64,000 bases of DNA from Psammoneis japonica (Eukaryota), in the NCBI GenBank assembly GCA_008632985.1, contig QPGO01000053.1, positions 310,001-374,000 of the forward strand, written 5' to 3'. Below, piece by piece: positions 7,517 through 63,005 of the stretch. The notes beneath the pieces were generated by a model, which saw only the letters and a list, made by a program, of their open reading frames with translations, made no database searches and was not told the DNA's origin. Both the position numbers and the translations under genes were made by a program. The stretch's first letter is position 1. Each line of letters begins with the position of its first letter.

Positions 7517-7527
7517 GTTCTATTCTT

Positions 7528-8247: not shown

Positions 8248-8819
8248 TTTTTCATTGAAGTTGTGAGTGGCCGGAAAAGCAAGGGTGAAAGGCCATTGGA
8301 TTCTCTCTTTTATTTGTAGACCCGCTTTCGCGTGGTTTGACAAACGCTATGCAAAATGGTACTATTCTAGACTGAAGACTAAAGGATTTAATAAACTTTT
8401 TTAAAGTTACATTTCGTAAACTAAAACCAAACGCCAATGTCGCACTTCGCAGTTTGAAGTTCGAAGTCGTCGGCGCGCAGTCGTCGTCGTGCGCGCTTTC
8501 GTCGCGCGAAGCCAATCATGTGAGTACTCTGTGGTACCGTACGTACGTGGAGTTGTACGTATCTTTTTCATATCACTATCACCTATCCAGAACATAAGAA
8601 GTACATAGTTCTGATAGTGACTAACCGTTAAAAAATTTGAAAGACCTAACTTACTCTCCTCTCGTTTTCGCGGCTCTGCATCGCCTCTCAACCAAGGGAG
8701 TGGAGCGTTGACTGAACCAACTGGTTTTTCTGTATGTGTACACAGAACGATCCTTTGAGTCACAATATTCCTTTGTTTTACGTGTGGCAGGTCCATTCCT
8801 AAAAGGCGTCAAACGAAAC

Positions 8820-24234: not shown

Positions 24235-24591
24235 TATAACATACCAGTTGCAGATTTTACTGTTTGGTGTCAGCAGCACCTATTTTGGCTTGGACGCGTA
24301 GGAGTAGGACTATGGAGCGACGGTCAACAACGCATTTTTCGATACGCTCATTGCTTCCAGCTTCAAACCACGCACTCGAGCCACGCCGACATTTCTGGCA
24401 TTCGCGCGCGAAATTCTAGTACATAATATATATTCAATTTGTATAAACTTATACCGAATCATTACTAAAGCTACTGTAGAAATGTACATACGGCTCTCCC
24501 AGTATATTTCCACTAAATTATCAAATTTCTCCCTCCGACAACGCTTGCCGATTCTTCCAGCCCCGGCCGCAAAGAAGCAACAGCCGTCGTT

Positions 24592-31189: not shown

Positions 31190-31499
31190 AGCTGGATTCG
31201 ATTGTGTTTCGTTCGCTCGCATTTGTGTTGTTTGTTGTGAAGCCATGGTTAAAAAGTTTCTAGATCTCGTGTTAAACTATCAGCCTATCTTGACGTAAAT
31301 GGATTTTACTCTACACAGTAGGGTCCTCTTGCTTTTAAAACGTTGGAGCTCGCTCCTTATCCGTGTAATGACGACCATTTGAGAGGGGAGAGAACTTCTT
31401 TTTTGGCGACAGCGTTGCGAATTTCGTCGAGTGGAGATTACGACGACGCCTCAAGAAGTAGTCTAACGTGCCTTTTCCCAGTCGAAAAGAGGGCAGAAA

Positions 31500-36200: not shown

Positions 36201-39200
36201 CTTTTTAATTTTAATTTCAAAAGAGACAATGTTTGTTTTGGAACAAACAAACTTCTCACCCAACATCTCTGGGCAAAGCTTGAGTGGCAACAGCATTTTG
36301 CAATCTTGTGCTCACTGCTGTGTGCTTTAATTGACCAGACACAACACCATTTTGTGACATGAACTTGTTCTTGCTGCTCAATTTCCATTGGCCAGCAGCA
36401 CAACTCCATGCAACAAATGCTTGCATTGCCATGAACAACTTGTGTCATCAACTGTCTCAAAGCTCCACAGCCAGATCAAGCTGTCCAGCGGCCCAAGTGC
36501 TGAGCTGGATGATGGCCACTTTGTAAAGACCACCCAAGACCTCCAGAGTCTCATGATGGACAAAAAACCTTCTGCAATGCCAAGAATGCTGGCTGCAAAG
36601 TCATGCTCCTGTTCAACTTTGTGCAGCCCAGGATCTTGAGACTGAGTGCAAAAATTGCCTTTTGAGGCCACTGGCAAATGAAGCTTGTGACAACTTCAAG
36701 ATGGGTGACATTGTGTGTTCCATCTGAGCTCCTAACAAAGCCACAAAATCACAGAGAATTGTGTCTCAAAATGACTGAAGTCAAGCTCAGACAAACATGG
36801 ACAACAACAGCAAATGTTCCAGTGGATGTTGCAGCAGCTTTCAAAAAAAACTTGTGGTTCTGCCATCAGATTCCTGCCCTCCTGGCAAGGACTGCACCAA
36901 GCTTGTGGCCAAAGCCCTGCATCTTGTCAAGATCATGATGCAGATGGGCTGTGGCTGCCCTGGCTGTAAAATGGGCTCTGCCATTGTGTGCAAAGTGCCC
37001 AGTGGAGTTGCCTTCTCTGAGCTCTTCAATCAACAAGCTTCGTCATTTGGGGGCCATGCAAGCAGCCGAAGGGAAAGTGTCATCTCTGCAACCCTGCCAA
37101 ATCTCCCAAGAGCTCTGCTCATGCTGACTGCTGTCCTGCCAAGACAAGTGGTGGGCCAGCTGCAGACAAAAAACTGGCCTGCCTTGTCCCCCCAAGCTCC
37201 CTTGAGAGCAGCCATGCTCCCAATGGTTGCAACTTGACCACCAAGCATGTGCTGTTGTGGGCATTGCCAGGAACACTGACATCCAATGCTGAACATTTTG
37301 AGTTTGCTTGCCCTGCATGCAAGAACCAAGCTGGCACAAAAATGGTCAAAAGAAGAAAGACCAAGACACTGGCAACTCCAACAAGGACACTCGCCCTCCA
37401 AGAAAGAGAAACCTTCCAAGCCTGTCTGGCATTTTGCCAACATTTTTTGTGACATGCTGACAAGAACAAATGCATGGTCTAGAAATGACTTGACAAGTGT
37501 GCCAACAGACAAAGAAAGTGGCAAAACTGGGACAAGCCAAAAGGGCCTTCAGCTGCTGAGTGGGCTGGTGCAAGCACCCTGCCAAGTCCAGCACAGGTGC
37601 TTTGACCAATTTTTCCATTGCGGGCCCTTTTTCAGGTGCTCCATTTGGGCTGCAGCAGTGCATGATCCTGGCCACTGCTTCAGCAAGCAAACTCCTGCAG
37701 ATCTGAGGCACTGAGCCCAAGCCCATCCCTTTCACAATGTCAGCTCCTTCTTTGACACACAGGGCTGCAAAAAGATGCCCTTGGACAATTGCTCAAGAAG
37801 CCAGCTTGCTGTTTTGACTCAGCCAAAAAGTTTCTGCCCCCAGAGCTTTTTTTTCTTTGACAAAAGTTGTTCCCCATGCTTCTTGGCTCTGTTGACACTG
37901 CTCCCTGGCAGGATCCTGGCCAGGCTGCACCTTCAAAATCTGCAGACAGAGTTGCTGCCCCCACCCAAGCCCCTCCCCTTGAGGCAGCACCCCTTGCCAC
38001 TGCTCCCCAAGCTCTGCTGAGTCTTGTGCATGGCCAGCACATGATGGGGAAGCACAAAATGAAGCTCCCACTTCTGTGCTTCCTGCACATCTGTTTGCCC
38101 CAATTCAGGTGGCTTGCCCTCCTTCCGTGAACCCTGCAACCATCATTGTTCTGCAATGTTGACACATCTTGCGCACAACAATCATCTGGATGTTGCCTGT
38201 GCTGCTGCCCATCAAGTCATCAGCAGGCTCTCATTTGCTCCCAAGGTCTCTCTCTCTCTCTTGCAATTGCCACTTGGAATGTTTTTTGTCATTTGAACCC
38301 ATGGACCAACATCTCAGCTGTCATGAAAGTGTGCATTTTGAGTTGCTGCTCCCCAGCATTGAAGACTGTGATGCACAACCCAACTTCTCTGTCAAGTCAC
38401 CAAGGGCACACCACTTCTTGTGCAGGACATCTGGCCATTGCATGGCCATCCAAGCTGTGGCCTCTTTTTGCACTTTCTGTGATGGAAGCCAAGCGTGTTG
38501 CTCTCTCTGAAGCAGCACACAGTCTCATTTCACTGTGCATGATTTTCAGCAAAGTTGGCGCACGCACTTCTTGTTCCTGCAGCTCAGCCATCAGAAAACA
38601 AGATCATTTCCCACACACCAACAGGCCCCCTTTCCCCCATGACAATGATGATGGGGCCAAATCTCAGCCCATTGTCTGTGCCAACTCACCTTCATCTGTT
38701 GTGCACGAGCGCGATGCTGCTTGTCTTCAACTTGCTTGTGAGCAAAAAACAAATGCCAGAGCCAAGCACACAGGCACTCCACACTGCTGGCTCTGTGCTG
38801 AAGCAGAGGCTTTGGCCCAACTGTCTCTGCTGCAAAGCCAGCAGACCAGCTCAATGAGGGACATGGGTTGGCAACTGCGCACCCCATTTTGGTTGAGAGG
38901 AAGAGTCGTGAGTCTGGCTTGCAGATGGGCAACTGCACTTGAAGTGTCGCACCAGCCAAATTGTCATGCACAATGCAAAGAGGAATCTCCTCACACTTTG
39001 AGTCATTGCAGTGCCTTGTTGTCTTCTGCTGCATCTGTCATCTGCTGTGCCACACTGCACAACCTCAAGAGGCACCTTGTCTTCCACATGAGTGCTGCAC
39101 AACCCGAGTGTCAAGAGATTCTCTCCCCCTGGGTTTCACATGGAGGTTTTTTCTTCTCCACAAAAGCACCAGCATGTGGCAAAGTGGAGGCCATAAGATG

Positions 39201-39290
39201 ATTCAGCTTTTCTCTTGCTGCACTGGCTGGAGTGTGCGACTGTGTTTCGGTTGAACACGAAGCGACAAGAAAATCCCACGAGCGGGCGGC
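31540..39290. other. TpA- and CpG-depleted hypermutated domain 1
   Basis: About 20 TA by eye in ~7.7 kb: one in 31741-33180 and none seen in ~37490-39190. Track ORFs are nearly Tyr-free and rich in Cys/His/Gln. Confidence 0.9.
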
Positions 39291-39594
39291 GGTAGCGTTC
39301 TTTGTCACGTCTGTGCGTTGGGAAGGATGCAGATAGAACGACGTCTTCATACACAAGACGAAGATCGAAAGCTGCTACGCAACAGTTACGACAGACTATG
39401 TCAATGCTGTTGGACATATTGTGCACAATACATGAACGCTTTAGTTACTGCTATATCCAAACTCCATAGACGGCATCTTCTTCAAAGCCAGCTCGGACAG
39501 CAGCGGGAGACTGAACACAGATGCACTTGCAGCAATAGAATATCGACTTCAACGCTTCGCCGTCTTCTCTTGCGGCAGGTTATTCGCTACTCTC

Positions 39595-41695
39595 CTAACA
39601 GGAAATGCCTTTGTCACTGCAAGTTGTGCCGCGACCCTTGAAGTTTCCTTTTATTCTGTCGCATGCCGACTTTTGGATCTTAAGACAATTTCCATTCTTG
39701 CAGCAGGCTCCATTCCTTGGACAAATTTCATTCTCACACGTCGTGGCATCTCCTCGATAATCCCCAGCACATTTCGACGCTGTACGGAGTTCGCATCTGT
39801 TATCTCCGAACTTCAAACAGCAAGCTCCCTTATTGGGGTCCACTGGCTGTGGAGGAGGAGGGGGAGTGGGAGGTGCCGTTTGACGCTTGTCACTCCCAGG
39901 GCATTCAATACTCTCACAACTCGTTCCAAAGCCCTGAAATTTGCCACTGAGCCGATCAATGCACCTGTTTCTTTTCTGATTAGGGACACAAATTCCTGAC
40001 TCTCGGCAGCATCCGCCCCTCTCACTGCAGCGGGCTGATACGCAGGTCTGAAACAGCAAAACGCAGGAGCGAGTGGCGTTTAGGATCAGAATCATTCAAA
40101 CAATATCATATTCGACAATTCTTACCTTTCCAGCCTGGAATATTCCATCCAACTTTTCACACGAGCCCTCCGTGACATCTTTGCATTCTCTCCTGTTAAC
40201 AACAAGCGATCATTACAAGACGTTCCGCTTAAGAAGCACTTAAAGGAATAAACAAAATGATGTATGCAGATAATCGATACGTACTTGTACTTCAAGCAGC
40301 ATGCTCCAGGTGGGTCGCAAATTCCAGCGCTGCACTCGGTGCCAAAACCCTTGAAGTCACCTGAAGATCATTCAATAAACGAGAAACAAAGTTTGAGAAC
40401 ATAAGTAGTGACACAGAGCCGCATCCTTCTGTGGTTATGAAAGCACTCACCTCCGCACCACTTCTTCTTGATTTTATTGCACACTTTCTTTCCTTTCACA
40501 GTCGTGCAGCAAGCACCTTTCAGTGGGCATGTCTTTTCATCACAGGTTGTGCCCTACAGACAATATTAGAAAGATACACGACACAGAGGTAAATTGAGAT
40601 GAAAGACTTCCAAATGAAGCCAGACTCACTGCCGGTAAAACAACGACGGCAACTTACAGGTCCTAGGTAGACGCCCGTCTTACAGAATTTTGGCTTGATA
40701 ACGTCACAGTTTCCGCCCTCTAAGTCACAGCAGGCACCGCGAGGATTGCATTTCTTATTGGCAGGCTGGGGAACAAGAGCACGACGAACATCAGTTCACA
40801 GACGGTTTCAAAAACGAAGAATGAAATCATATTGTGGGAGGGACTAACTTACACATTCGGTTTTGGAACCCGTGAAAAAACCTCCCTTGTCATCGCAGAC
40901 CTTCCTTCTTAGCACAGCGCAAGATGCATCAAGCAAGCAGCAGGCGCCTTCTTGGCAATCGCCACACGTCGTACCCTCGCCCGCGAAATCGCCTAAATAT
41001 TTGAAATGGACACGAGTGTTATCAGAGGGATGCAAACGAGACGTAGTCACTAAAACATTACTCATTACTGACGTACCTTTCTTTTTGTCACACTCAAACT
41101 TCCTCGCTAGGAAGCATTGTCCGTCTGGATCGGGATCGCAACATCCCCCATAAGCTTCTGGGCATCTGTCGGCACGACAGGTGATTCCATCTCCAAGATA
41201 TGCGCCGCCTATAGAATCGCAACTGCTTTCGTCGAGCCACGTGCAAACCGGTGGATTTGCAGATGGTTGACAACACCCTCCCTTAGGAGGGTCAGTATTC
41301 TGAAACATGTAAAGATAAACAGAAGCAATGAGAATGCAAAAACAGTGAACGAAAACAGTTGAAGCGTTTGGATTCGCATACCGTCAGGATCCGCTGAGAC
41401 CCAGCCTTTGATAGAAGAAGTGAAATTACAGAGTAGAAAATGTGAGAACAGGAAATAAAATCATGCTATCATCGTGATAGTTGCTAATTCACTCTTACGT
41501 ACGTTGGAAGAGGCACCGTCCTTTGGTCCGTACTCCGCCGACACGTCTGAGGAAGAACACAGCGTAGGAAAGCAAATTCGTGAGCCATTCCTGTCTACTC
41601 GAAACAAGTGGCGCCAACATTAAACGTTTCATACCTGTCGCCTCGCAAAGAGCAAACGCAACCAAGAGCAAAAGACCGTTGTAATTGAATTTCAT
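39595..41695 (-). CDS. Secreted cysteine-rich protein with tandem G(A/G)CC repeats, 10 exons
   Basis: Signal peptide MKFNYNGLLLLVAFALCEA. Nine GT-AG introns splice into one frame (…ASSN|AGSQRILT|NTDPPKGGCC…). Repeats GACC-x5-8-C-x7-C-…G.(Y/F).G.GTTC. Stop TAG at 39595. Confidence 0.85.
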
Positions 41696-43026
41696 CTTTG
41701 TCTTCGACTCGATACTTGTTACTAATCTTACGAAATTCTTTTTTGTGAGATGGATTCCGGGGCGCCACGATCAACACAAGATTGTGACGCGAATTGTCGT
41801 AGTGCGGTTGTGCCGAGAGAGAGTCTTTTGGTGGTCACGAACCACCTCATATATTAAATGATATTAGTCCCTATGCACTTGCGTAGCTTTTCTTCTTTTT
41901 GATTAATGACTGTTCTTTTAAAAATGATTTGTCGCTATCAGAAGTCATAGTCATATGATCAATTATAGACATCCATTACATAAGTCATAGATTTTATCGG
42001 ATTTCAAAGCAGTATGGTGTAGTCATACTATAAATGTTGCTCCACATTTATACTCTAGCAGGTCATCATCCGGCTTACTTAGTTGCTAGCTTGCAGAGTT
42101 TTCTTCGAGACTTTTCGTTATTGGTCAGATCACTCATCCATGTCCTTTCGGCGCAGAATCCTGTGGTTTTTGTACTGGAAATAAAAACAATTATTGCTAG
42201 TGACCGAATGACCATGGCATCTGATGCGACGACTCATTCGACGAGCTCGTGTGCACGCTCGGGAAACGCACACGCCCACACAAGTGGAATCATGGATTCC
42301 TCCTCCTTGATTTGTTTCCATGCAAGGCTTCCTCAATGCACTCCGCTTCAAACAGTGTGCTCTCCAGGATTTGGGTGCAACAGGAAGGTGTCTCTTGATT
42401 GGGAGCTGAAGTGCTGAGCTGCTGTGGTCTGTGGTGTGACAGCGAGGTGGATGACCGGATGGCGTGTCCATCGACGACAACTTTGGGCCCATCAAAGGGG
42501 CGAAAAAGGTGGCATGAATCACAGATCATTGCCCCCCGCACTGAGCCATTGTGTGCACATCTTCATTCATTGGGTGGACCCCTTGCTGATTAAATGACAC
42601 GGCCACTTGTTGGAATCTCACCTTTTTTGTTTGTTTGCACGGTGCCCGCGTTTGTCCTTCATCTGATTGTTGCCCACAGACACTGTGGTGTTTTTTTTGT
42701 GTCCCCACTTCAACCAAACAATTGACGCACCTGACTGGCACATGTTTGTGGATGTTCCAGCATTTTCATTGTGTGCTCTCTTTCTTCATTTGCACTCAGC
42801 GACATTTCCAATTTCCAGTCGCAAGCTGGGCATTTGATGTGTTCGTGTTGTTTGATGACACAACACATTTTGGTGGCAGCATGAATGGCAGTGTGATCAT
42901 GAACACATGCTGTGCATTGAGTGAACTGAATCACGTTGAAAACACTTTGTCTTTCTTGTGATCATTTCACGGCAATTTTGCCATGTCAATTTTTGCTCAC
43001 TTCATTTTTTTCCGAAATCGACACAG

Positions 43027-43286
43027 GGCCTGTTCCAGCTCCAGGTGCTCCTCGCGGGTTCGATTCCCATCATTTGGAAATTTGTGCATTTGGCACAATT
43101 GACTTTTTCCAAATCCGTTTTTTGCCAAATCAAAGGGCAAGTGCACACTTTACATGTGTTTTCGGGTGTGCACTCACCTTTCGATTTTCGAAACGATCAA
43201 AATTGAAGGAGTTGATTGCGCTAAACTGCGCAGAAAATCGGCCTCTCGAGTGATGAAAAGCAGAGCACCTGGAGCTGGAGCAGGCC
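43027..43286. mobile_element. MITE-like element, 260 bp with 24-bp terminal inverted repeats
   Basis: ggcctgttccagctccaggtgctc (43027-43050) vs gagcacctggagctggagcaggcc (43263-43286), 23/24 match. No clear TSD. Confidence 0.75.
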
Positions 43287-43479
43287 ATTGGGGAATTCAC
43301 GCAGCCTCACTCAGCCTCCATGGCCCTTTTTCCTTGTGACCATGTGTCTGATTGCATCACCTCCACCATCCCACATTGCATGAGACAAGTCCGTTGATGC
43401 CGTTGTCTCCGCTGATGATTGTTCCAAAGACTGCAATAGCAGCGTTTGTCTTGACACTTCTTCACGTGATGACACACAT

Positions 43480-44100
43480 CAATGTCAGCCTTTGTTGTGC
43501 ATCAGTGTTTTTCTGTTGACTTGTTTCCACAACTCACTCCAAAACAAAGCAACAAATGATGCCAGGAGCAAGCAATCTTCGTGAGCTTTCCTCTTCACAA
43601 TGAGGGTGCAAAACAGCCAGAGTTCAAGCGGACATCGTTGGCACATGTCAGCTCCTGTCTGGTCTGCATGCAAATCAGTTGGAAGAAGGAGGTCCTTCTC
43701 TGGATTGAAATCTTCAGGGAGATTGTTGCATGTGTTGAAGCACCATTTGATGCAAACTGTTTCTCCCAGGTCACAGTCATCCACGGGGACAAACTTTCGG
43801 CGCTGTTCTGCATCGATTGGTTGACATTTAGACTGTGATGGTCATCAAAAAGGGAGTGGGCAAGCAAGTCCTTTGACATGTCCTGCATTTGAAAACAGGT
43901 GGCTTGGCACCCAGAAATGATGCGTGTGTCTGGTTTTGGCATGCACACCTTCATGCAGATGCTTTTCAGCAACTGTTTGCACTGAAGAGCCTTGCATGCA
44001 TTGAACTTCTTTTCTTGTGGAGATGTCATGGCAGAGTGAGCAGCGAATCATAAAATCCTTGAGTGGCACAGGAATTGTCACACAGTGTGATCAGCTCAAG
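43480..44100 (-). mobile_element. Plavaka-like transposase relic
   Basis: KDLLAHSLF…KWCFNTCNN…LLLPTDLHADQTGADMCQRCPLELWLF reads as WY..TY…LLP..LYAD.TG.D.YQRYPLE after restoring Tyr. Resemblance to Plavaka-type transposases is from memory only. Confidence 0.5.
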
Positions 44101-45086
44101 AGAAGCTCCCTCAGCCAACGTGAAGCTGCAACCAAGCAGAAGGGATGACTGTTCCTTGCCAACACAATCAGGGGGTCAGCCGGCGAAACTTGCTCTTCTT
44201 CATCAATGCCGCAATTGTCGGCAGAGTTGGTGCTGGGAAGCATCTCAAAAGGACACAGCTCATCCTCATCGTCTCCATCTGAGTGAGATCCATCACAGTG
44301 CTTGTGGAGTCATTGTCTTCTTCAATGGAGGTGCTGTTCTCAAAATCCAAAACAGCACCGCTGAACTCTGCATCGCATCCCGCCGTGGCACCACATGACA
44401 AAAGGGAGGAAACAGAGGAAGCACCTGTTGGGGAGCCGATGTCGGATCTGTCGGTGGGGTTTCTGGAGGTGCCCTCAGAAGTTGGGCAATGTTGGCAGGA
44501 GGACATCAACAAGGACTCCTCATCGTGGCCTTGACGAATGAGCAACACAGTGGCTTGGGACAGCATGCCCAAATCACTGGTGGCAACGTTGACACAACCA
44601 ACTCAGCAAGGCTGGTGCCAGCAATGGCAGAAACAAACCATGTGCAAGGATCTGTTTGCAGGGTGGGGATTGCCAAGACAGACAAAAACAAAGGGAGAGT
44701 CATTGGAAGTGAGTGTGAACTGATTGATTTTAAAATCAGATTGTTGTGCGGGTGTGAGAGCTGATTGAGAGTGCACGTGCCTTGCAGCCAGACAGACATG
44801 AATGTTGGAATGATGGGAAATGGAATTTGAAAAAACAGGGATCCAAACATTCGGTCATGGCCAAATGCAATGTTTTTGAAACTCAGGCAAGCAAACTCAA
44901 GTGTTGCATTGGCGAACATGTGATGACAAACAAAATCAATGGCCACACAATGTTTGGGTCACAACATTTGCAAATGCAGGGAAATCCAGGTTGCAGCGGC
45001 AAATGGCTGGGTGCCAATGTTCACATGACTGGCGCTGGGAGGAGCACTGACAAAACAAACCACTCAGAAAACAACAACACAAAGTC

Positions 45087-46500
45087 ATGGCAACCACGGT
45101 GCAGAGACTTGTCAATCCAGCCAAGTTGATGGACGATGACAAGAAGGTGGGCAGAGACACAGTCAAGGTGAGAAACCATGTCAAAGAAAAGGTGTTTCTC
45201 AGCATCATGTTTGTCTTTGATGCAAGGCAGCTGGAGGAAACCGGCATGCTGCACCAAGACTGCACCCAGAATTGCAGACTGACACTGATGGATGGAATGC
45301 TGGCAGACCTGCCAGAAGTGGAGCAAAAAAAAAAACACCTGCATTTCCTGTGGATGAAAATGAAACAAAACAGGTTGTGCCAGGCTTGGCCAGCAACAAA
45401 GCAATCCAATGCATGTCAGGCCAAGCAAGACAAATTTCACAGCAAGCGCTGTTGCCAAGGCTTGTCGTGGATGAGGGGATGACAAACTGATGTCAGGAAC
45501 ATGTTGTTGCTGACACAACACAGTGCTTTGTGCATGCTGTGATGAACACAATTGCATCTTGCCTTCACCAGAATGACTCCAGGAGCAATTGTTGAATCCA
45601 ACATCATTGCAGACAGTGACTGTTTGTTGCAGCCGGTCATGGGAAATGCTTGTTGGAAGAAGAGCCTCTCCAACAACACAAGGTTGGGCATGTTGCATGC
45701 TGAGGCATTCACCCACATGCTCCTGAAGAACAATTTTGTAGCGTGGCACATGGAGCACACAAGAGCAACAACAAGGACAGTCGTTTGTGATGTCAGACCA
45801 TGGTGCGGAGCTTGATGACCAAGGAAACCCCACCAGAAGGCAAGACTTGTGTGGGACGACAATGCCAGATGTCAGCGTTGCTGAGCCAAAGGATGCAAAC
45901 GGATCAAGCTCATTTGCCATTTTGGAAGGAGACCCCAAAGAGCCAACAGAGCAATGTGCAGCAGAGGAAATGTTGAACAAATTCAAAGAGGCACAGGAGA
46001 AGTCCCTCGAGAGCTGCAACGAATGCATCAAGAAGGTGAGAATGGAGCAAACAACACAGGAGCAATTGGTCATTTTGATGGAGGTCACGAACAAGCTGGA
46101 GAGCAACAAGAACCTGCCTGACAGGGAACGTGGCACTGAGAAAAGAAAGTGCTTAAGATGCCTGGAGCACTTCACAGCAGGGAACTCCAGGAATGGAGTG
46201 GAAGAAGGTGCACCGAGGACATGATGAAAGACACCCAGGAAGTGCAAAGGATGGTCCCTGAGGGCAAACAAGTTCTTTGAGAAACTGGTGAGCGAAATCA
46301 AACAAGATGTTGTGAGCAAACAACTGGGACAATGGGAGGATTTGCACAGGAAGTTTGTGGCAGGGTGCAATGAGAGAAAGTGGAGGATGACAATGATGAG
46401 TCAGGGGACAAGGGCAGCCACATGGTGAACTGCACCAAGATGTGCAAGCTGCAGTTGATGCCAGTTTGGTGGATGACACACATAAGCAGCATTGACGTCA
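45087..46500 (+). mobile_element. Degenerate transposon accessory ORF
   Basis: Broken frames with VRNHVKEKVF, EAFTHMLLKNNFVAW and GWSLRANKFFEKL fragments, divergent from the Plavaka-like relic. Assignment is by recollection only. Confidence 0.35.
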
Positions 46501-47149: not shown

Positions 47150-47410
47150 GGTGCAACAAGTGCAAGTCACCAGGGTGCAGCTGCCCAAGCCACCCAAAGT
47201 CACCAGGATGCACAAAAAATCTCAACTCGCCAAAAGTGCTTCTGCTCTAAATCCAACCACCCGCCCAGCCGCCCAGCCACACAGCGGAGGGCAATTTTTG
47301 GCAAACATGTCTCTGCTCACATGCATGGGACATTTGTCCATTTGCCAAGCCAGCTGTTTTTTTTTTGAAACATTGAAAAACAAGCAAAGAAACAACACCC
47401 AGCCACAGTT
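47150..47410 (+). repeat. Dispersed repeat copy A (partner at 62780-63005)
   Basis: Shared ccaggatgca…aatctcaactc…gcaatttt(t)ggcaaa..tgtctctg…ttgtccatttgccaagcca. Confidence 0.8.
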
Positions 47411-48919: not shown

Positions 48920-50420
48920 TGGGCAAGCCATGTGCAGGGGTTATGAGTCCCAAAAAACAGGGTTTGGGCCAATTTCTGGCACAAGTTCCATGTGGCAAAT
49001 TCACGCAGAACATCTTGTTCATCGTGCTTTTCTCCCATGCTTTGCAAAAAATGGGCCACAACATCAAAGAATTGACTTCAGTCAGAACAGCTGACACTTT
49101 GCGTGCTTGCTTTTTGACAACAAACACGATGATTTCCATCATTCTGTGAAGCTCCACAATTGGAAAATGTTCGCCGTGGTGGGCCCGCAATGAAGTGTTG
49201 ATCACCAAAATTCTGAAAACAGAATTTTGAAGTGTTTGTGCACAGAGGCGTGTCACTCATGCAAAAGTCATCAGGCAAAGTGTCAATGGTTTCAGGGGAA
49301 AAGGATTCCTTGAGGTGCTGGCCGTTCACGGCAGAAGCACGAGAAAAAAAATCAGCTCAAACCCTGACTTTCATGTTTTTTTTTTGCACAAAATTTCTGC
49401 ATGATTTTTGCACCACAGTGCACATGGCTCATCCAAGAGTGCACTCACTGGGTCAAAGCCCCAAACAATGACCTGCAACCAATGCACTCTTTTTTGCCTC
49501 TCTGACATCATGCACCAATCGTGGATGCGGACGAAGGTCAGAATGACCACCACACAGAGTTGACTGGAAGCCAAAAATTGCAAATTGATCCCATGATGTG
49601 ATGTTGACACACAAGGTGTCAATGTCAATCACATCCAGACAATCTGTTGTCACAGTCTTGTTTGCTGATGGGCCTTTTGTCCTGTGGGACTGGTGCAATT
49701 GCTTTGGGCCATTGAGAGCTCATTCGGAGAAACCCAGAACGATTGACTGGAATTTGTTCTCATGATTTTCGCTTTTCGTGTTTTGTTCCACTTTCGTTTG
49801 CACTCAATCTTCAAGCACAGTGCAGTCTTGCCACTGTCCAAGGCAGTGAACATGGATGTCAACAACAACTGATGTCAATGTTTTGCTGTTTCTGTCACAG
49901 GTGCAGCGCTGACAAGCCATGTGCAGGGGTTGTGAGTCCCGAAAAACAGGGTTGGGCTGATTTCTGGTGCAAAACTCACATAGAAAATTCGCGCAGAATG
50001 TCTTGTTCATCGTGCTTTTCCTGTGCTTTACGAAAAATGGGCCATGACCTCAAGGAATTGATTTCAGTCACAATGGCTGACACTTTGCGCACTTGCTTTT
50101 TGATGACAAACACGACGATGTCCACCACTCAGCAAAATTCCATCATTGGAAAATGTTTGCCGTGGTGGGACCGCAGTGAAGTGTTGATCGAATTTCTGAA
50201 AATGGAGCTTTGAAGTGTTCACGCACAGAATCGTGTTGCTCATGTTAAAATCATCATGCAAAGTGTCAATGGTTTCAGGGGAAAACGATTCCTTGAGGCG
50301 TCAGTGGAGCAGAGAAGCACGGCAGAAGCATGAGAAAAAATCGGCCCAAACCCCAATTTTCACAATTTTTTCTGCACAGAATTTCCACGTGATTTTTGCA
50401 CCAGTGCACATGGCTTGTTC
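48920..50420 (+). repeat. Diverged ~500-bp direct duplication (48920-49430 and 49910-50420)
   Basis: Collinear from caagccatgtgcaggggt to gatttttgcacca…gtgcacatggct. Differences are dominated by TG/CA swaps. Confidence 0.9.
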
Positions 50421-50448
50421 TGCGGGCGCATGCACGTGCAGAAAATCT

Positions 50449-50571
50449 GGGGTGACACCCAAAAACAGGGGGTCTGGTGCCCGTTCTGCATCAGCTGCCA
50501 TTGGATGCGGGGTGACGCCCAAAAACAGGGGATCTGGTGCCCGTTCTGCATCAATTGCCATTGGGTGCGGG
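50449..50571 (+). repeat. Tandem repeat, 2 x 60 bp
   Basis: ggggtgac(a/g)cccaaaaacagggg(g/a)tctggtgcccgttctgcatca… repeated with period 60. Confidence 0.9.
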
Positions 50572-51125
50572 ACGTTAAACCCCTTCCAATCACAGATTCG
50601 CAACCAACCAGTCATGATGAGATGCAAAAGGATGTCTGCTTCTAAATGAACCTGTTGAGTTTTGCCACTCGAACGGCTGTCGCTAAAGTGAAAATCCGGG
50701 TGCTGCACCCGGGCGCGGCCGAACTGAACAATGTGCAGCGGCAAAATTGTGCTCTCACCACAAAAGAAATTTGTGCTCTCACCACAATGTAGAAATGTGC
50801 CAGGCACCACATAGAAGAAAAAGCACTGTCAATGGATGAGGAATCTCGACCGAGCCCTCCGACGACACAACACTCTCGAGGTCATTGCTTGCCGTCTCCG
50901 CAAAGATTTTGTGCTTTTGGGAGAGACTCTCAATGCACTGCATGCATTGCTCTAAGCCATGTGATTCTTGGAGTTGCAACGTGGAGTTGCTTTGTGCATG
51001 GATTGAAGCCCAGAGTTGTCCACAGGCAGAGCATTTCCTGACATGAGCTTGTTCCATTTGTCATTCTTGTCACATTTCTGCGGCAACTGTTCCATCAAAA
51101 AAGAAGGCAACTGTGGAATCTGACT

Positions 51126-54100
51126 GTGTCTCATGACATTTCTCTGCAGGGAAGAGACAGCGACGGCGATGGTGATGATTTGTTCAACACCATGCTTCGC
51201 GATCTCGATGATGCTGATGGCAGACACGAGGCAGCTCACAGCAACAACGAAACTGCTGTTGACCTCACCGCATCAGAAAGTGACGATGACGTCGCCTCGG
51301 CAGCTGTGGGGCGAGTGAAGGACCCTCGTGACCATGTGCACGACTCTGGCATGGCTGTCGACCTCACCACAACCAGCTCATCAGAAAGTGACGGAGACAA
51401 TGGATGGTCCATGAATGATGGCATCGCCTCAGCAGATGCGGGTCAAGTCAAGGACCCTCGTGACCGTGCGCACGACTCTGGCATGGCATCCGCAGCACGC
51501 AAGCATGGTTGCATGTCCAAGGAATCAGAAATGTTGGTTGCTCATGGTTGTTTCTGTTTCTCTTGTTTCATTTTATTTTCAGCAGCTGTGGTTTCATTGC
51601 CAGTGGGCAACATTGCATCCAGCACACCGGCTCCTTTGTCAATGCAACCTGCTCCTGTGTCTCAATCGCCACCTGAACGCCGCAAGAAGAAAGCTCCAGA
51701 ATCCCGTTCCAATGGCAGGGATGGCAGTGGAGACTGGTTCCCATTGTGGTCTGCTCCGTCATCAGACTCGGCGATGCAGCATTCAAAAATGCCTTCCGCG
51801 TCTGAAAAGCATGTCATCGAATTGTGGAATGCTCCAGATGGATTTAAGTTCCTTGTCAACTCGTCAGTGTCAAATGTGGTCATAAAATGCTGGGACTGCG
51901 CCGACCATGGATGCTCGGTGCAGGTGAAGATTGAGCGTTCCGGCTCAACACTTGTCAAAGAGCAACGAGGAGCACACAACCACCCCCCGCCCGCAGGAGG
52001 AATGCCTGCAAATGCAACAAACCCGCCATTGCCACGGCCTGCCCCAGCACGCAAGTGGCCAGCAAATGTGGAGCTCTCGGACTGCCTTTTGCAGCATGCG
52101 GCAAACATGGAACAAAACACACTCGAACAGCATGGCTTGGAGGATGAAGCCATGCTGGATCAAAAGATGCGTCCTGTGAAAGCCTTGCGCGCCGCCGCTC
52201 CCAATGTTGGGAATGCAAGTGTGCCGCCAACTTTCAATTTGCCGCATGCTCCAAAAATGATCTGACGATTTTTTCCTTTCTTTTTGCAATGGGCAAATTG
52301 TCAAATTTGAGGAGTCATGCTCCATTCTCTGAAAATGTTTGCTGCTGTACACAATGAAGGCCAGCGAGGGAGAATGCGAGTGCAGCATCAGCCGTGCTTC
52401 TAGGCCGTGTGGCATTGGACGCCACAACATTGAAGGTGTCGGTAAATGGACTGCCAAGCTCATGGTGGAGTGCAAGCATTTTCAATCTCTCTGTTGTACG
52501 ATGTGGCTTTCTCAGTCATGCTGCAGTTGCAAGGAATGACGTGCTTCAATTGTCACTGCTGGAGAGTGTTGGAACAGCCACACAATCAACCTCAACATTG
52601 TCACTGGCATGGTGATTGTTTGCATTGGCGTCACCAGCACAATGGTGGATCACTGGCATTGTGGGTGCATGCACCTGTCATTCGCATCGGCGCTGCCTGC
52701 ACATCGCCTCCAGCAGAGCACAATCTAGAAACTGATGTGTGCTTGTTAGTCAGATCATGGCATGTGACAACAGCATCGAGCGCAACTGCAACATGTTGAA
52801 AAAACCATCGTTGCCGATGTCGATCATGCTCCGTGTGTGGAGACGAGTGCGATTGTGGTGTGGATCACCAACCGTGATGTTTCACTCCATGGCGTTTGTC
52901 ACGATCCGTGGCATGATCACGATCCGTGTGCATGCCGCCCTGCATGGCAGTGACTGCTGCAGTCTGCAAATGAAACAGCAAGTTACTTCTTTCCTCTGGT
53001 TCTTAGAACATTTGCATCTATGATGATTCAAGACAATGATGACGCAGACTCGCCGCCACCCAATCTGGAGGGTTGGCGTTTAGCGCGTTTTCTTCCTTCA
53101 CCCACTTCTGGTTCATGTGGCACCACAACAGATGATGAGAAACACATTGTTGAGACACTGCAGCGGATTGAGAATGACGGACTGCATGGCATCCATCAGG
53201 GTCAACAGAACAACAGGCTGTGCTCGTTGATTTGCCAATCTCCAAATTGTCATGTTGGTGCCAGGATCCAGCGCTTTCCAGGGAAGCTCGGCATGCATTT
53301 GCCGGAGGGACAGCATCACAAGCAACATGATGAAACACTGGCCAAGGGCCTCAAGAAACCAGCATTGCGACAGGTGCAAGAAAAACCGCACATGAGTCGG
53401 GCGCAGCTGTGTGATCACCTGAAAGGGTTGGGGTCGCACAACAAGTCGAAGTCAAAAGAAAAGCAACCTCAAATCCATTGCAAATGCAATGAGAGCAAAG
53501 GGAGCAACAAAGCAATTTGTTGATGGTGGCACATTTGACAACCTGGAGGAGCTAAAACTGTCCCTCGATTCACGTCGCCAATCCATTGACGAGTTTCTAG
53601 CCGGAAGGAATGAAGCGGAGCCTTCTGTTGCAAGACTGCCTGCAATGAAGGCGGAAGACCCACTGCGAAACATTGCAGTTCTTGATCATGACGTTGATGA
53701 TGGCACTGACGGGCTGCATCAAGATTGGTCTCACATCATTTTTGCATTTCCAAGTGCTCGAATGGTGCTTGAGAATGTGCAACAGCTTTGGAAGACCGGG
53801 AAGGTGCAACTTGAGATGGACCATGCAAAAGGTTTTTGGGACAATGATCTTCGTCAACTTGGCATGGTGGGAATCAGTGACGCCAACAGAATGTTTTTTC
53901 CGCTCGTCGTTGGCATTCAAAAGGCAGAAGACAGTGATGGCAGTGCTGCCATTCTGCTTCGTTCAACAGAAATGACATTGAAGAGTTGAGGAATGCCGTG
54001 CACATGCCTGAAAGATGGTTCCCTGGCACTGGCCAATGGCGCCAATCAGGTGCAGTTGACTGACATGGATTGCTGGGCTCACTTTGTCCGGGTGCCATTT

Positions 54101-56334
54101 GCACGGGGCGGAGGTTGTCGCGGCTCCAAAGGATCCTTCTCCTGGCACATGCTTGAGCAGAAGTTCCCAATGGAGTTCGTGTTTGGTGTTCTTTCTTGCT
54201 TTTTTGCTTTCTCGCACCTCACCACAGCACACAACTGGGTGATGGCAAGAAGACTGTACAAGGATGAAAACCCTGAGCTTCCGGACCACTTCTGCGCACA
54301 GCACCCACCACTTTTCCCTGGATTTGGGTCAGCATGTCATGAGCCAGGGGAGGCACAATCGGGCCAGGGACTTGAAAGAACTTGGGGGCACCTAAAAGAC
54401 CAAAAGAGAGACTGTGACAAAACAAATAAAACGGCCGACATTGAGTCAATCTTTGAAGCCACATCAAGGTGGGAGGAAACGCATGCCGAAGATGCCTTTG
54501 CTGCCGAGCCAACAACACCAAAATCCGGGTGGGATGTCATTGCGAATTGCCACAGAAAGGATGCCGGCATCGATTTCAAGAGCTGCGCACACTGCTCGTT
54601 AGAGACCTGCCAGCCATTGACGCGCCAGGAAGCAATCAGAAAATCAGCGATCGTTGGTGGATGCGTGGTGCACATGCCAACCTTCCACTTCTGTTCAGCG
54701 TGGAAGGAACAAGCCATTGACCGGATGGTTGGTGTGGATGATTCGACAGGGGGATTGACAATTGAGCAAATCACCATACAACAAGAAGCCAAGAAGAAAA
54801 TGAATCAAGCATGCACATCCGCTAGACCCACTCCAGTCAAGTCTGCGTTCATGGAGATTGTTGGCACCCACCTTCTAAACAACACGCTGTCACCTCTTGA
54901 AGGGGAAGACTGCCGTTCATTCCTGTTGCGACGGTCTCAGCACTTCATTTCAGTGAATCAAATGGGGTTACATGGAAAGAAGAACCAAGGCAAGAAAAGA
55001 GGAAGAAAGGTGAGACGAGTGATCACGAATTAGATTTGGAAAACAAAAAGTGGGAAGCTGACGCTGGGGCAGAATTTGAGAGCAACTTGCAAAGAGAACT
55101 GCCAAAGGATGCAAACAAGGATGCTGAAGAGGAATCAAGAGCTCGTGCATTGTTGTCTGAATTAAAAGAGTCGGCGCAACAGATGCCGATGGTTCAACCG
55201 TCTCGTGACGCCAACCGTGACTCGGTTTCGACAAAGCCAAGGCACCACAGGCTGTGCAGCCGGGCTTGCGGACACTTCAAGGAAACAACCGTTCGAGCAG
55301 GAGTGCACGCTTTGTGCAATTGTGAAGTGTTCATGAGAAATGGTTGGTGTTGCGACACCCTCATCCACAACTCAGTGGAGCTCGGGGAAACACCACCAGC
55401 AAAATGCCGCGATGCCGACGGCGTCGGTTGGGACAACATCAGAATTGGATGGACAAGACAGTTGATGAGCACCGTGTTTGGTGGAGAAGGGGAAAAGAAC
55501 AATGCAGCAAACATGCACAAGACTCACTTTCCAGCAGTTGATCTGCTCTTTCACTTCCAATCTGTTGTTGAAGCTGTGCCGGTTCCATGGATGGCAGACA
55601 TTGACACCAAGGAGCCAAAAACCCTGGGCATCACAACAGCTCGCAATGCTCACACAAACCAAGCATGCGTTGCATCAGTTCAGCCAAATTCAAAGGGAAG
55701 AGCAATTGTGGACGATGTCACAGTGGGGGTGAACGGAGTTGCTGTTGTGTTGCAGGACGATGGATCCCTTCTGGCGGGGCACAAGCTGGATTGCATTGTT
55801 GACATGATCAATCGCTGCAAGGAAGAGAGTCGCATTGTTAGATTCGATGTGCTGCGCAAGCACAGGAAGGGGCAAGAAGGGCAAACGCATGGCTTGCCGC
55901 ACAGTTGGAAGTTTTCAAAAAGTTGTTTGCAAAAGAGATGGGGCTGAAAATGGCCACGCGATTCACGTTGAGCGAAGGCAACAAGGGCATGGGAACAGGT
56001 CTTTTTTGCGACAGCAAAGGGGGGTGAGCTTGCACCCAGGCCTGGGTTCATTTCGGAATCTCCATCCGGCATGGTCAGGTTCCTGGGACTGCAAAAAGGA
56101 AGAACCCCCGATGGAGATGTTGGCGGCAAGTTCCATGACGCTGTGATGCAACTGAGGAAACGTTTCAACTTTCAGCCCCTCGATTGCTCTCATGGTCGAA
56201 ACTGCACCCTCGTTGACGGAGAGGACAATGAGGAAAAGCCACTCATTGTTGATCTTGAGCACTGGAAAGATCTTTCCAAGAGGAAACAGTTTGGAAAGAC
56301 TAAACTTCCGTGGTGTCCATTAGGATTTCTATGA
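51126..56334 (+). mobile_element. Mutator/MULE transposon relic (WRKY-like Zn finger, DDE transposase, SWIM)
   Basis: CADHGC…GAHNH zinc finger. LEMDHAKGF, CLKDGSLAL, DCWAHF (CxxH) and GLERTWGHLK give the MULE D-D-E layout. LCNCEVFMRNGWCC is SWIM-like. Interrupted by stops and frameshifts. Confidence 0.72.
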
Positions 56335-57560: not shown

Positions 57561-58149
57561 TGTCCAGATGTGCATGTCAAGCAAGCTGGAAATGTGAGTC
57601 AAGGCATGTGGGCCCACTTCTCAAGCTTTTCCATGGTCGCTCTCTGATGATGTGATGAACCTCAAGAGCTGGGGTGGCGTTGAGCCCATTGTCTTGAGGC
57701 GCGAGAGGAAAAGGCAGGGGTGTGTGTGTTTCATGTGGCTCCAAGGATGAGAGCAACATTTGTTGTCAACTTTTCTGTCCCTGTCATGTGTTTTGTTGAC
57801 AAGAGAACTCCAAAAATCAGCCAGAGGATGCAAAATGACCCAGCTCCCAGTTTTGTGCAACAGCGCAGCAGATGCATGCGCAAGCTCTGGGGGGAGGGCA
57901 ATTGAGAGCCTCTGGTTGTCAACAGCTTTGACTGCAGAGACAACTGGGTTTGTGTGTGTGTGTGCGGTTCTGTCCAAAGCAACACAACAAGAAAGGGGCT
58001 TCTTCTCAGGAAGAAGCTTGATGGCAGGAAAACAAAGGGCACGTCATTGGCATCAAGCAAGCTCCTTGGTTGCTTCAGGAACACAAATGAGAGAGGGCTC
58101 CTCCAAGAAGGCTGTCAGGCTCCTGCTGCAAATGACCATGCAAGCAGCG

Positions 58150-58610
58150 TCATAAAATCGCCAACTCGATTGCAGTCCTGTTTGCAGCTCGATTGCGGAC
58201 TGCGATCGAAACGACTGCAATCTGCTGATTGTTTGTCTGGCGCTGGTCACAAAGATCGCAGTCGTGTTCGCGATCGATCGCGATCGATTCGTGTCTAAAA
58301 TTCAGTCGTGAATCGGGATTTTCATCGCACACGGGACTAAAAATTGACCGAAAGGTGGCACACATTCACGAAAAATGCGTCCTTGCGCAGAGGGCGCCCC
58401 TGCGTGGGGCGCGCGAATTCCGCGCGGTGGCCCAATCACGATCGCGATTGCAGTCGATTGTCACACGTGGCAAGCGCGCGCGCATTGCGATCTTTTGATT
58501 GCTGCGAAGCCGCGTGCAATCGATGGTTGCAATCCGTGATTGTTGGGAGAAAGTTGACGATTTTGTGACACTGCATGCAAGGCATTGCAGCTGAAGATTG
58601 CAGTCATCAG
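58150..58610. repeat. CpG-rich array of cgatcg/cgattgca-type motifs around a GC hairpin
   Basis: Many cgatcg, cgattgcag and cgactgcaatc units in both orientations. Hairpin gcgcccc-tgcgt-ggggcgc at ~58394-58412. Confidence 0.65.
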
Positions 58611-59449
58611 ACAATGATTTTTAATGATGCAGCAACAACCTGGGCTTGCATCATGTGACTGTCCTTGTCAGGCACAGAAACAAGGGGGTTGAGTTGTTTG
58701 CACAGACAACCCCCGGTTTGAGCATGTGGTGCGGCGCATGTCGTGACATGCATGCATGTGCAGTGTGTGTGGGGGCCCTGAAGAGCACAAAATCCAAAAA
58801 TCCATCATCTCAACAGAAAAAATGCTGCATCACATGCGTGGATGAAGGTCAACAAATAAAAGACAAAAGCAACTGGTGCTCAAATGGTCAAAATCAATGA
58901 CCTCAAAACAGAAAAACAGCCAATCGATTGGCCAGGAGTCAATGGCATCCCAACCCAAAAATGACTGAGGCAACACAAAATTCAGAATGTTTTGCGTGTG
59001 CAAGCATCACAATTTTTATAAAACCCCAAACCATGCAAAAGTCATTGCATTCTGTTTTGTGTGCAAAGACTGCTTGTGAGCAAAATTGGTCATTTTGAAA
59101 GTGGTCAGCCCCCAAACCCGTGACCCCGACTTTGTCTCACCCATCTATCTCCAGTCGGTTTGGGGTCAGGACAGGGGGGAGACACAGACAAATTTGATGA
59201 CTCAGCTGAACCCCAAATGTCACAGTGACAGACAAGCATGCGCAATCATTCTCAAGTGCCATGAGTCACTGTAAAAACTTCAACTCATGACCTGGTTGAC
59301 CCCCAAAACAAATTTTTGGTAAAACCGGCATTGATGTGTGTGCTGTGTCACATCGTTGGAGATCTTGGATCTTGTTGAAGGCCAATGACAACAACGTTGA
59401 GACACTCAAAGAACCAGGATTGTCTCTGCATCTTGTCGCTGTTTTGCTT

Positions 59450-59558
59450 TCACCATGGCTGAAGAAGGAGAGGAAGTGGTGGCGTCCTGGTCCAGGATTT
59501 GCTTTCTCACCATGGCTGAAGAAGGGGAAAAAGTGGCGGCATCCTGGTCTGGGATTTG
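59450..59558 (+). repeat. Tandem repeat, ~2 x 57 bp
   Basis: tcaccatggctgaagaagg…aagtgg.ggc.tcctggtc..ggatttg at 59450 and 59507. Confidence 0.85.
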
Positions 59559-62779: not shown

Positions 62780-63005
62780 TGGAACAAGTCCCAAGCCACC
62801 TGAGGAAGTTGCCAGGATGCAAGGAATCTCAACTCACACCAAAATCAGGTGCTGGTGCTAAATCAAGCCACCCACCAGAGAGCAATTTTGGCAAATGTGT
62901 CTCTGTCCATGTTTGGGGCACTTGTCCATTTGCCAAGCCAATTGTTTTCTGGAGATGTCAAAGAAAACAAGCCAAGAGCCAAGACCCAGGCATGGACACG
63001 CAATT
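62780..63005 (+). repeat. Dispersed repeat copy B (partner at 47150-47410)
   Basis: Same shared sequence as copy A. aagtcacc/aagttgcc and aaacatgt/aaatgtgt differ by CA vs TG. Confidence 0.8.

Follow-up and report, generated by a model that had tools for sequence, protein, structure and literature searches.

How do two copies of one repeat come to read CA where the other reads TG, in both directions and at site after site? The question is raised by a pair of ~500-bp repeats in a 64,000-bp stretch of contig QPGO01000053.1 of Psammoneis japonica (contig positions 310,001 to 374,000), hereafter called the window and numbered from its first base. The two copies lie in direct orientation at 48924-49429 (copy 1; 1 TA, 11 CG, 48 TG, and 59 CA) and 49913-50415 (copy 2; 3 TA, 18 CG, 49 TG, and 50 CA), and the 483-bp spacer separating them (49430-49912) is likewise TA-free (0 TA, 9 CG). 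They are 79.96% identical by BLAST across 514 columns, and no third copy was found by BLAST within the window. An earlier note on this DNA had described the 500-bp segment as duplicated, which pairwise alignment and BLAST bear out, and had put forward a palindromic TA or CG ancestor, mutated on opposite strands in the copies after duplication. We consider it probable that the answer lies along these lines and that old repeat copies in a transposon-derived domain were altered in place by a TpA-directed process, to which CpG decay was added.

The substitution pattern of the pair is dominated by double changes. In the global alignment, which has 19 gap columns, the copies differ at 84 of the 495 ungapped columns (by 64 transitions and 20 transversions), and identity rises from 80% to 93% once the bases are recoded as purine or pyrimidine. 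CA<->TG double swaps make up 15 of the 19 adjacent double transitions (9 CA>TG and 6 TG>CA), among them all five that the earlier note had quoted (48980/49968, 49011/49999, 49059/50045, 49104/50090, and 49254/50237). When the same number of each substitution type was scattered at random in 20,000 runs, 1.85 ± 1.27 swaps were obtained, with a maximum of 8, and none of the runs attained 15. A pair of PALP paralogues from the unbiased half of the window, used as a negative control, has 1 swap versus 3.24 expected (966 columns; transitions to transversions, 142:154). Within the repeat pair, 44 of the 64 transitions fall in pyrimidine-purine (YR) steps, and elsewhere transitions and transversions stand at 20:20. 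Tabulated by YR step, the pair holds 8 sites that are CG in both copies, 11 with CG against TG or CA, none with TA in both, 3 with TA against TG, 15 with TG against CA, 35 with TG in both, and 38 with CA in both. The residual states reported before, TA at 48942 against TG and TACG at 50029 against TGCA, are also present.

Other members of the repeat family give the direction of change. Run X1, a public set of sequencing reads, contains 88% of the sampled words of 46-54 kb. Two more runs of the same sample, X2 and X3, gave 7 and 0 contigs and carry no weight here. Over 48.5-50.5 kb it yields many similar contigs, with a summed word depth of 566-2,402 versus 59-74 in the unique flanks; these sums are not copy numbers and are used only to show that many similar sequences exist. 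The 500-bp family therefore has further members, some of them less decayed. In public collections, a degenerate 25-mer taken from the best-conserved stretch matched no viral locus and a single metagenome locus, which proved on alignment to be an unrelated, AT-rich chance match. At swap site 49088/50074 the X1 contigs of other copies have C, which makes the step CG (other depth 1,050 of 2,008), and at 49104/50090 they have T, with no change listed at 50091, which makes it TA (1,085 of 2,600). The other copies also have TA at 50095, 50159, and 50241 and CG at 50127, 50303, 50376, and 50378, at all of which the window has TG or CA. Among the variant rows listed against copy 2, the letters of the other copies amount to 46 transitions and 7 transversions; thirteen less-supported rows lie outside these. 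With these copies as outgroups, the palindromic ancestors that had been proposed are read directly at two swap sites, as CG at the one and as TA at the other, and the alternative that the earlier note had set against its own proposal, that all swap sites were CG and none TA, is contradicted by the TA at 49104/50090. Four lines of evidence agree that TA as well as CG was ancestral. Mutation on independent strands after duplication is upheld as well, as discordant states between the copies can arise only after their separation and the intermediates are present in the pair. A two-base inversion as the source of the swaps is ruled out by the TA/TG and CG/CA intermediates in the pair together with the TA or CG of other copies.

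The pair lies in one of two domains in which TA has nearly disappeared. Biased domain B1 (31501-39200), the content of which is unidentifiable, has 21 TA (observed/expected ratio [o/e], 0.043) and 42 CG (o/e, 0.09), with TG and CA at an o/e of 1.8. Biased domain B2, which holds the repeat pair and runs from 42201 to 64000 and on beyond the window, has 91 TA (o/e, 0.063) and 601 CG (o/e, 0.47), with TG and CA at 1.7. At least 29 kb of the 64 kb thus shows near-saturated TA loss (o/e, 0.04-0.06). The gene half (1-31500), made up of dense intronless open reading frames (ORFs), is normal (TA o/e, 0.58; CG, 0.99; TG and CA, 1.13), as is a 3-kb unbiased island between the two domains (39201-42200; TA o/e, 0.62; CG, 0.96; TG and CA, 1.05 and 1.26). 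The TA borders at 31.5, 39.2, and 42.2 kb are sharp to ~100 bp, those of B1 lying at ~31470-31560 on the left and ~39200-39290 on the right; at the left edge of B1, the CG border lies 300-400 bp behind the TA border. TA loss is uniform, whereas CG in B2 is patchy (o/e, 0.07 to 1.29 per 500 bp), which argues for two separate processes.

The missing steps have not simply vanished. The o/e values of the four YR steps total 3.3 to 4.8 in each 500-bp bin, mostly 3.6 to 4.3, and TA and CG have therefore been redistributed into TG and CA by transitions. The GC content of the biased DNA is unchanged (0.48-0.49 versus 0.48), and GpC is up and ApT is down, as expected if TAC becomes TGC, GTA becomes GCA, and ATA and TAT are targeted. 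At the protein level, ORFs of the biased half contain 0.1% Tyr, 5.3% Cys, and 5.3% His, versus 2.1, 1.6, and 1.6% in the gene half. AA/TT is not depleted (o/e, 1.25-1.31 in biased DNA versus 1.14), and the loss is therefore specific to TpA and not to A in general. In the WA-motif mutagenesis of antibody hypermutation, polymerase eta mutates A in both TA and AA contexts; such an origin would have depleted AA too and was rejected.

The 39201-42200 island holds several ORFs on the minus strand whose Cys-rich modules recur (GACC...C...C patterns) and which are apparently exons of one Cys-rich repeat gene; a Pfam search with the two longest gave no family. The island is normal throughout, introns and flanks included, and this gene was therefore exempt from the process and not rescued from it by selection. 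A segment of B2 at 58001-58500, with TCGCGATCGA in tandem at 58268-58288, has a CG o/e of 1.29 (45 CpG) yet a TA o/e of 0.11; CpG is spared decay there while TpA was not.

The simplest account of the swaps would be CpG decay alone, with every swap site once a methylated CG that underwent C>T deamination on either strand and TA playing no part. CpG is indeed depleted in the same domains as TA, 11 sites of the pair have CG against TG or CA, other copies have CG at swap site 50074, and the young tandem repeats described below differ chiefly at CG steps. CpG decay is, however, unable to remove TA, which stands at 0.04-0.06 of expectation versus 0.58 next door and is lost uniformly where CG loss is patchy, and it does not provide for the TA at swap site 50090 in other copies. 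Furthermore, if all CpGs decay alike, the number of CpG-derived swaps expected from the pair's own counts is het^2/(8 x hom) = 11^2/(8 x 8) = 1.9, not 15. The leftover ~13 swaps fit ~29 ancestral TAs with a loss probability of ~0.945 per copy, which predicts 0.09 sites with TA in both copies (0 are seen), and a context model with host-like priors attributes 10.6 of the 15 swaps to TA ancestors. We regard an origin in CpG decay alone as very unlikely.

A dead gene in B2 allows the two losses to be followed codon by codon. A tblastn search with an intact homologue (P0134) locates the relic of a transposase-like gene of ~1000 aa at 53056-55866 on the plus strand, with residues 63-995 of P0134 matching in three frame pieces at 40-47% identity. 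The reading frame of the relic changes twice, near 53464 and 54960, and is interrupted by a stop codon at 53987-53989; the relic's ORF at 54901-55944 matches 28 proteins, P0134 being the best (E = 7e-63). Among 13 codons that are Tyr in both P0134 and a second intact homologue, P0136, the window has His at 8, Cys at 2, Phe at 2, Asn at 1, and Tyr at none, so that 10 of the 13 have become CAY or TGY, a change that CpG decay would not give. Other conserved residues are largely retained (Cys, 10/10; Trp, 10/11; His, 10/13). Arg has persisted at 16 of 22 conserved positions (10 as CGN) and has given way to TGG, CAG, or CAC at 4, i.e., 4 of at least 14 inferred CGN codons have decayed. The fates of the Tyr and Arg codons therefore show complete TA loss and partial CG loss, matching the local composition.

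The relic is probably that of a MULE/SWIM-type transposase, an assignment that we offer as a lead from model-based similarity. In the ESM Atlas, the core of P0134 falls nearest to MULE transposase and SWIM clusters (first match, 0.95, with 171 shared features), and the best match of the window's own relic ORF is 0.89; we also take CxxH and SWIM-like motifs to be present. Searches with P0134 and P0136 gave no Pfam family apart from a weak PDZ match and no sequence match in the PDB, and the AlphaFold model of P0134 is poor (11-row alignment; mean predicted local distance difference test score [pLDDT], 44.3; predicted template modeling score [pTM], 0.28).

Could the DNA have arrived, from a virus or by transfer, already poor in TA and CG, with nothing having happened in place? 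Pfam at E <= 0.01 finds no family in the 67 longer ORFs of the 125 listed for the biased half (stop-to-stop, at least 100 aa), and when relaxed to E <= 10 for 8 ORFs, it gives a single chance-level match, so an exotic origin is possible for the unique parts. The discordant TG and CA states of the two copies nevertheless require mutations after copying, the intact relatives of the transposase-like gene have a normal Tyr content, and run X1 contains less-decayed copies with TA and CG. An inherited composition is thus highly improbable. The proposal in the earlier note that the bias was acquired in situ is supported as the parsimonious reading; it falls short of proof, since the copies belong to a genomic multi-copy family.

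A different kind of doubt concerns the letters themselves, as modified bases at CG and TA might be miscalled on each strand, with either TG or CA entering the consensus by chance. In principle, strand-specific miscalls would indeed turn a palindromic site into TG or CA. Such miscalls would also split sites into two half-depth paths. The biased DNA is nonetheless present in the reads as assembled: two long 31-mer contigs from X1, one of 10,656 letters over 30600-33575 and one of 9,075 letters over 33560-42631, have no differences from the window, both are at a word depth of 59-65, and the first bridges the normal/biased left border of B1. These exact contigs, which cover 12 kb of the most biased DNA plus its border, therefore exclude assembler or base-calling error. 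Moreover, the copies differ also by the 20 transversions and 19 gap columns, and the Tyr>His/Cys pattern stands beside two frame changes and an in-frame stop, as would be expected where a dead gene has really decayed. The chance that the pattern is a sequencing or assembly artefact is in our view negligible.

Both strands have been affected independently. Counts of TG and CA are near equal in the two domains (838/857 and 2240/2338), and their order along the domains is random (runs-test z, 0.76 and -0.53). Strand-coherent editing tracts, looked for with the runs test, were not found, and the change therefore affected either strand site by site. Context dependence can likewise be read per strand. 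The 111 residual TAs of the biased domains are not random: with the 31.5-kb gene half, which is of similar length, as a baseline, retention is 66/225 for YTAR versus 6/378 for RTAY. An additive two-strand model in which the hazard depends on the 3' neighbor of A (A, 0.31; G, 0.98; C, 1.97; T, 2.24) improves on a single rate with a chi2 of 123.7 on 3 df (p, 1e-26; residual deviance, 10.5 with 6 df); what is robust is the order T, C > G >> A, and not the hazard values themselves. The same test applied to CG retention shows mild context dependence only.

These properties bear on two further mechanisms. In animals, mobile elements are restricted by APOBEC3, which converts C to U on complementary DNA, and by ADAR, which converts A to I on double-stranded RNA; ADARs favor U before the edited A and prefer G 3' of it, the latter differing from the 3' pyrimidine preference found here. 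APOBEC3 and ADAR edit a single strand of a replication intermediate, leaving strand-coherent tracts, whereas here both strands of resident DNA were affected, each independently. ADAR-like A-to-I editing of transposon RNA, fixed by reverse transcription and reinsertion, would account for the TpA context, since this is the 5' neighbor preference of ADAR, as the Discussion of the preprint on Bigelowiella natans notes (10.64898/2026.01.13.699255). Editing of one strand would, however, give only TG or only CA in each copy, and the two are equal and interleaved at random. The spacer and the flanking unique DNA are equally affected, the borders are domain-like and spare a 3-kb gene island, and the only recognizable element looks like a DNA transposon. 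We therefore give RNA editing scarcely any credence.

Chemistry at thymine is harder to set aside. The T of RTA might be modified, for example to 5-hydroxymethyluracil by a TET/JBP-type enzyme, and then mispair or be misrepaired to C, with no adenine deaminated at all. Thymine hypermodification reportedly favors TpA in some protists. TA>CA on one strand is TA>TG on the other, and the context found here is equally readable as 5'-R-T-A; A>G on one strand is T>C on the other, and that our data do not separate them is a point against naming adenine as the target. On the other side, the sole published model for this signature, itself a proposal, is an ADAT2-like adenine deaminase (10.64898/2026.01.13.699255). 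We consider the thymine route unlikely.

Comparison of repeats of different ages places the two losses in time. The pair is old, with 20 transversions and 20 non-YR transitions as background divergence, and because of the swaps almost all of its TA loss must be later than the duplication. A second dispersed repeat (47275-47408, with its partner at 62866-62995) has 2 CA/TG swaps versus 0.37 expected, and another old repeat in the biased DNA has 4 versus 1.22. There are no swaps in a young 60-bp tandem duplication at 50449-50571 (92% identical; 10 transitions, 1 transversion) or between young 71-bp units at 51285/51417 (86% identical); both sets have several differences of CG against TG or CA and none of the TA type. 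TA had therefore already been lost when the young repeats arose, while CpG decay continues. A 57-bp tandem duplication at 59443-59558 has 9 transitions, no transversions, and one CA/TG swap among 55 aligned bases. As to the structure of the repeats, copy 2 contains an inverted repeat with 35-nt arms (49964-49998 and 50370-50404; 80% complementary), and no convincing terminal inverted repeats of a whole element were found around 48.5-56 kb. A CCC(A/G)AAAAACAGGG core in the 60-bp tandem units past copy 2 (50443-50574) recurs within the opening 45 bp of both 500-bp copies (48930-48970 and 49919-49958), and these units may be reiterated subterminal motifs of the element to which the 500-bp repeat belongs.

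The timing also raises the question of whether duplication itself was the trigger, as in fungal repeat-induced point mutation (RIP), with the mutator acting only on DNA that repetition has marked. Almost all of the TA loss did follow duplication (~94% of ~29 ancestral TAs lost per copy), run X1 contains the many similar sequences over 48.5-50.5 kb, and diatoms carry DNMT4 enzymes related to the fungal RID (PMC9998398). Nevertheless, 33560-42631 is a single contig at single-copy depth that is made up mostly of the most biased DNA of the window, although it could have diverged beyond recognition. The young tandem repeats are without TA-type differences, the main target in B. natans is single copy (10.64898/2026.01.13.699255), and the direction of change is opposite to that of RIP, which creates TpA (PMC2621366). 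A repeat-induced trigger is accordingly quite unlikely in our judgment.

In the reading that we prefer, of TpA-directed change in place together with CpG decay, the two copies would be old members of a repeat family in a diatom-like nuclear genome, within a domain that is poor in genes and derived from transposons. Once they had separated, two transition processes would have acted on both strands, each destroying self-complementary pyrimidine-purine steps. The first would be a TpA-directed A:T to G:C change that gives TG where the top-strand A is affected and CA where the bottom-strand A is; it would be nearly complete, with 4-6% of the expected TA left, would treat the strands independently, and would prefer 5'-T-A-Y-3'. 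The second would be ordinary CpG decay, CG to TG or CA, patchy and ongoing, as from 5-methylcytosine deamination in silenced repeats. With each ancestral TA or CG resolved at random in each copy, one copy would therefore come to have CA where the other has TG. The data themselves show the substitution pattern, its direction (from outgroups), its domain limits, its dependence on context strand by strand, and its presence in the reads. By analogy with B. natans, we infer that the first process may be an enzyme-driven hypermutation targeted by chromatin or to foreign DNA, most simply a deamination of adenine in DNA, and the second is presumably driven by methylation.

Several points weigh against this reading or narrow it. 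Everything is drawn from fixed differences in one assembly, with no mutation caught in progress, and run X1 probably comes from the same sample as the assembly of the window and so is not independent biology. The directly polarized swap sites are 2 of 15 and split evenly, 1 TA to 1 CG. The estimate of a TA majority presumes equal decay of all CpGs; more swaps would trace to CG if some CpGs decayed faster than the rest, and B1 has in fact lost almost all of its CpG. From TA and CG densities like those of the host, 6.5 + 2.3 = 8.8 swaps are expected, not 15, and therefore either something is missing from the model or the ancestral element had more TA and CG than the coding DNA of the host. The hazards take the gene half as the ancestral tetranucleotide baseline, and the residual TAs may in part be new mutations at steady state. 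Finally, the base before Tyr-derived codons is in line with the per-strand context, being a purine in 7 of 9 that became His (CAY) and a pyrimidine in 4 of 5 that became Cys (TGY), but the test of this pattern is weak at these 14 sites (Fisher p, 0.09).

The closest known system is that of B. natans, the alga in which a TpA-rewriting mutational defense was first reported, in a 2026 preprint. In mutation-accumulation lines of this alga, 230 of 231 mutations in integrated giant-virus and virophage regions were A>G or T>C (10.64898/2026.01.13.699255, Mettrop et al.); according to its authors, TpA was the site of all GC-biased mutations in these viral regions, some of the lines (and not others) mutated at ~6e-7 per site per generation, and an ADAT2-like adenine deaminase is proposed as a hypothesis (10.64898/2026.01.13.699255). 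The likenesses that can be drawn from the preprint are TpA>TpG and TpA>CpA change on either strand (here TG and CA are both produced, with swaps of 9 and 6), discrete regions beside normal DNA, and a long-term loss of TpA with a gain of CpA and TpG in clusters. In B. natans the targets are associated with DNA that is mobile or foreign, and the TpA-poor genes are enriched in DDE and reverse-transcriptase domains, according to the same source; here the candidate counterparts are a predicted transposase-like relic and the many similar sequences of run X1, and most of the 29 kb is unidentifiable. There are also differences. De novo mutations were measured in B. natans, whereas here they are read from fixed differences. 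The main B. natans target is reported to keep a TpA rho of 0.45 (3.3% of dinucleotides), versus an o/e of 0.04-0.06 here. The main text of the preprint has no occurrence of CpG and makes no mention of flanking-base context, whereas here CpG decay and a 3' neighbor rule are found. The element is DNA-transposon-like plus a multi-copy repeat here and a giant virus or virophage in the preprint, and the host here is diatom-like (Stramenopila), as against a chlorarachniophyte (Rhizaria). The genes of B. natans are intron-rich, in contrast to the intronless ORFs of the window.

Two other systems share part of the signature. CpG decay arises by deamination of 5-methylcytosine in methylated repeats. 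What is found here resembles it in that CG changes to TG or CA on either strand, in repeat-rich domains only, graded by apparent age and visible in young tandems; the TA loss is unexplained by it. In a diatom, Phaeodactylum tricornutum, loss of DNMT5a is reported to remove DNA methylation and derepress young transposable elements (PMC9998398), and CpG decay is what such methylation would lead one to expect in diatom repeats. RIP is similar in producing only transitions, in inactivating DNA that is repeated or mobile, in acting on both strands, and in leaving a dinucleotide signature and compositional domains. Unlike the process seen here, which destroys TpA and enriches CpA at constant GC, RIP turns CpA into TpA and lowers GC (PMC2621366). 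In the literature searched, no report of the TpA-loss signature was found besides that on B. natans, and none was found for diatoms, RIP in diatoms included. On sequence evidence, the window is thus best filed as a putative second, independent lineage with TpA-directed hypermutation of mobile DNA, laid over ordinary CpG decay.

The end state of the B. natans signature in a diatom-like organism, in an ecologically weighty and different major lineage, suggests that the system is widespread. To what is known of it, the window would add per-strand independence, the 3' neighbor order T, C > G >> A, sharp borders with an embedded gene left unaffected between them, and CpG decay as a separate and slower partner. 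A bolder proposal, toward which we lean slightly more to doubt than to belief, is that diatoms, like B. natans, have a domain-targeted mutator of silenced mobile DNA, whose deamination of adenine in 5'-T-A-Y-3' on either strand, together with CpG methylation decay, erases both self-complementary steps, and that TpA hypermutation is an old defense across the Stramenopila-Alveolata-Rhizaria (SAR) eukaryotes. If true, Tyr codons and TAA and TAG stops would be removed, transposons would be dissolved beyond recognition, and a natural adenine editor of double-stranded DNA would be implied. In practice, TA-free domains hide transposons from homology searches and yield long spurious open frames as TAA and TAG vanish, and the change of Tyr to His or Cys is a usable marker for de-mutating relics.

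Long open frames are indeed in excess: ORFs of at least 300 aa number 4, versus 0.1-0.2 expected per 21.5 kb in Markov simulations. A 459-aa frame at 45024-46400 on the minus strand lies within TA-free DNA, and no family was found for it; it may have arisen through the loss of TAA and TAG stops, or a second gene may have decayed there. A 407-aa open frame on the plus strand, 5' of the transposase-like relic (51042-52262), contains acidic 132-bp repeats (51285-51355 and 51417-51487) and a C..C..H.H zinc-finger-like stretch, and no family was found for it either. Scans of the window for tRNA genes and Rfam families gave no matches.

Near the left end of B2, a 260-bp element at 43027-43286 has 24-nt terminal inverted repeats (96% complementary), seems to have decayed less than the DNA around it, and includes a GGTTCGATTCC stretch that resembles a tRNA B-box. 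In run X1, two bins covering 42552-43879 have summed word depths of ~3,400-10,200, and 43027 is the exact start of 15 loose ends. This is apparently a very abundant miniature inverted-repeat transposable element (MITE) or an element resembling a short interspersed element (SINE), far more abundant than the 500-bp family.

The gene half encodes a SUN-domain protein, CCB2/CCB4, two PALP enzymes, a type III polyketide synthase fusion, and a PDZ protein. For CCB2/CCB4, the best named homologues are from diatoms (42-57% identity). The PALP-family paralogues used as a control above are in tandem on the minus strand (20643-21632 and 23257-24279; 68.5% DNA identity); their relatives are named threo-3-hydroxy-L-aspartate ammonia-lyase or serine/threonine dehydratase, with those of diatoms best (57-66% identity) and those of bacteria close behind. 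The placement of the host near diatoms is drawn from these two proteins, CCB2/CCB4 and PALP. An 818-aa ORF on the minus strand (24592-27048) combines an AMP-binding C-terminal-like region, a phosphopantetheine-binding region, and a type III (chalcone/stilbene synthase-like) polyketide synthase.

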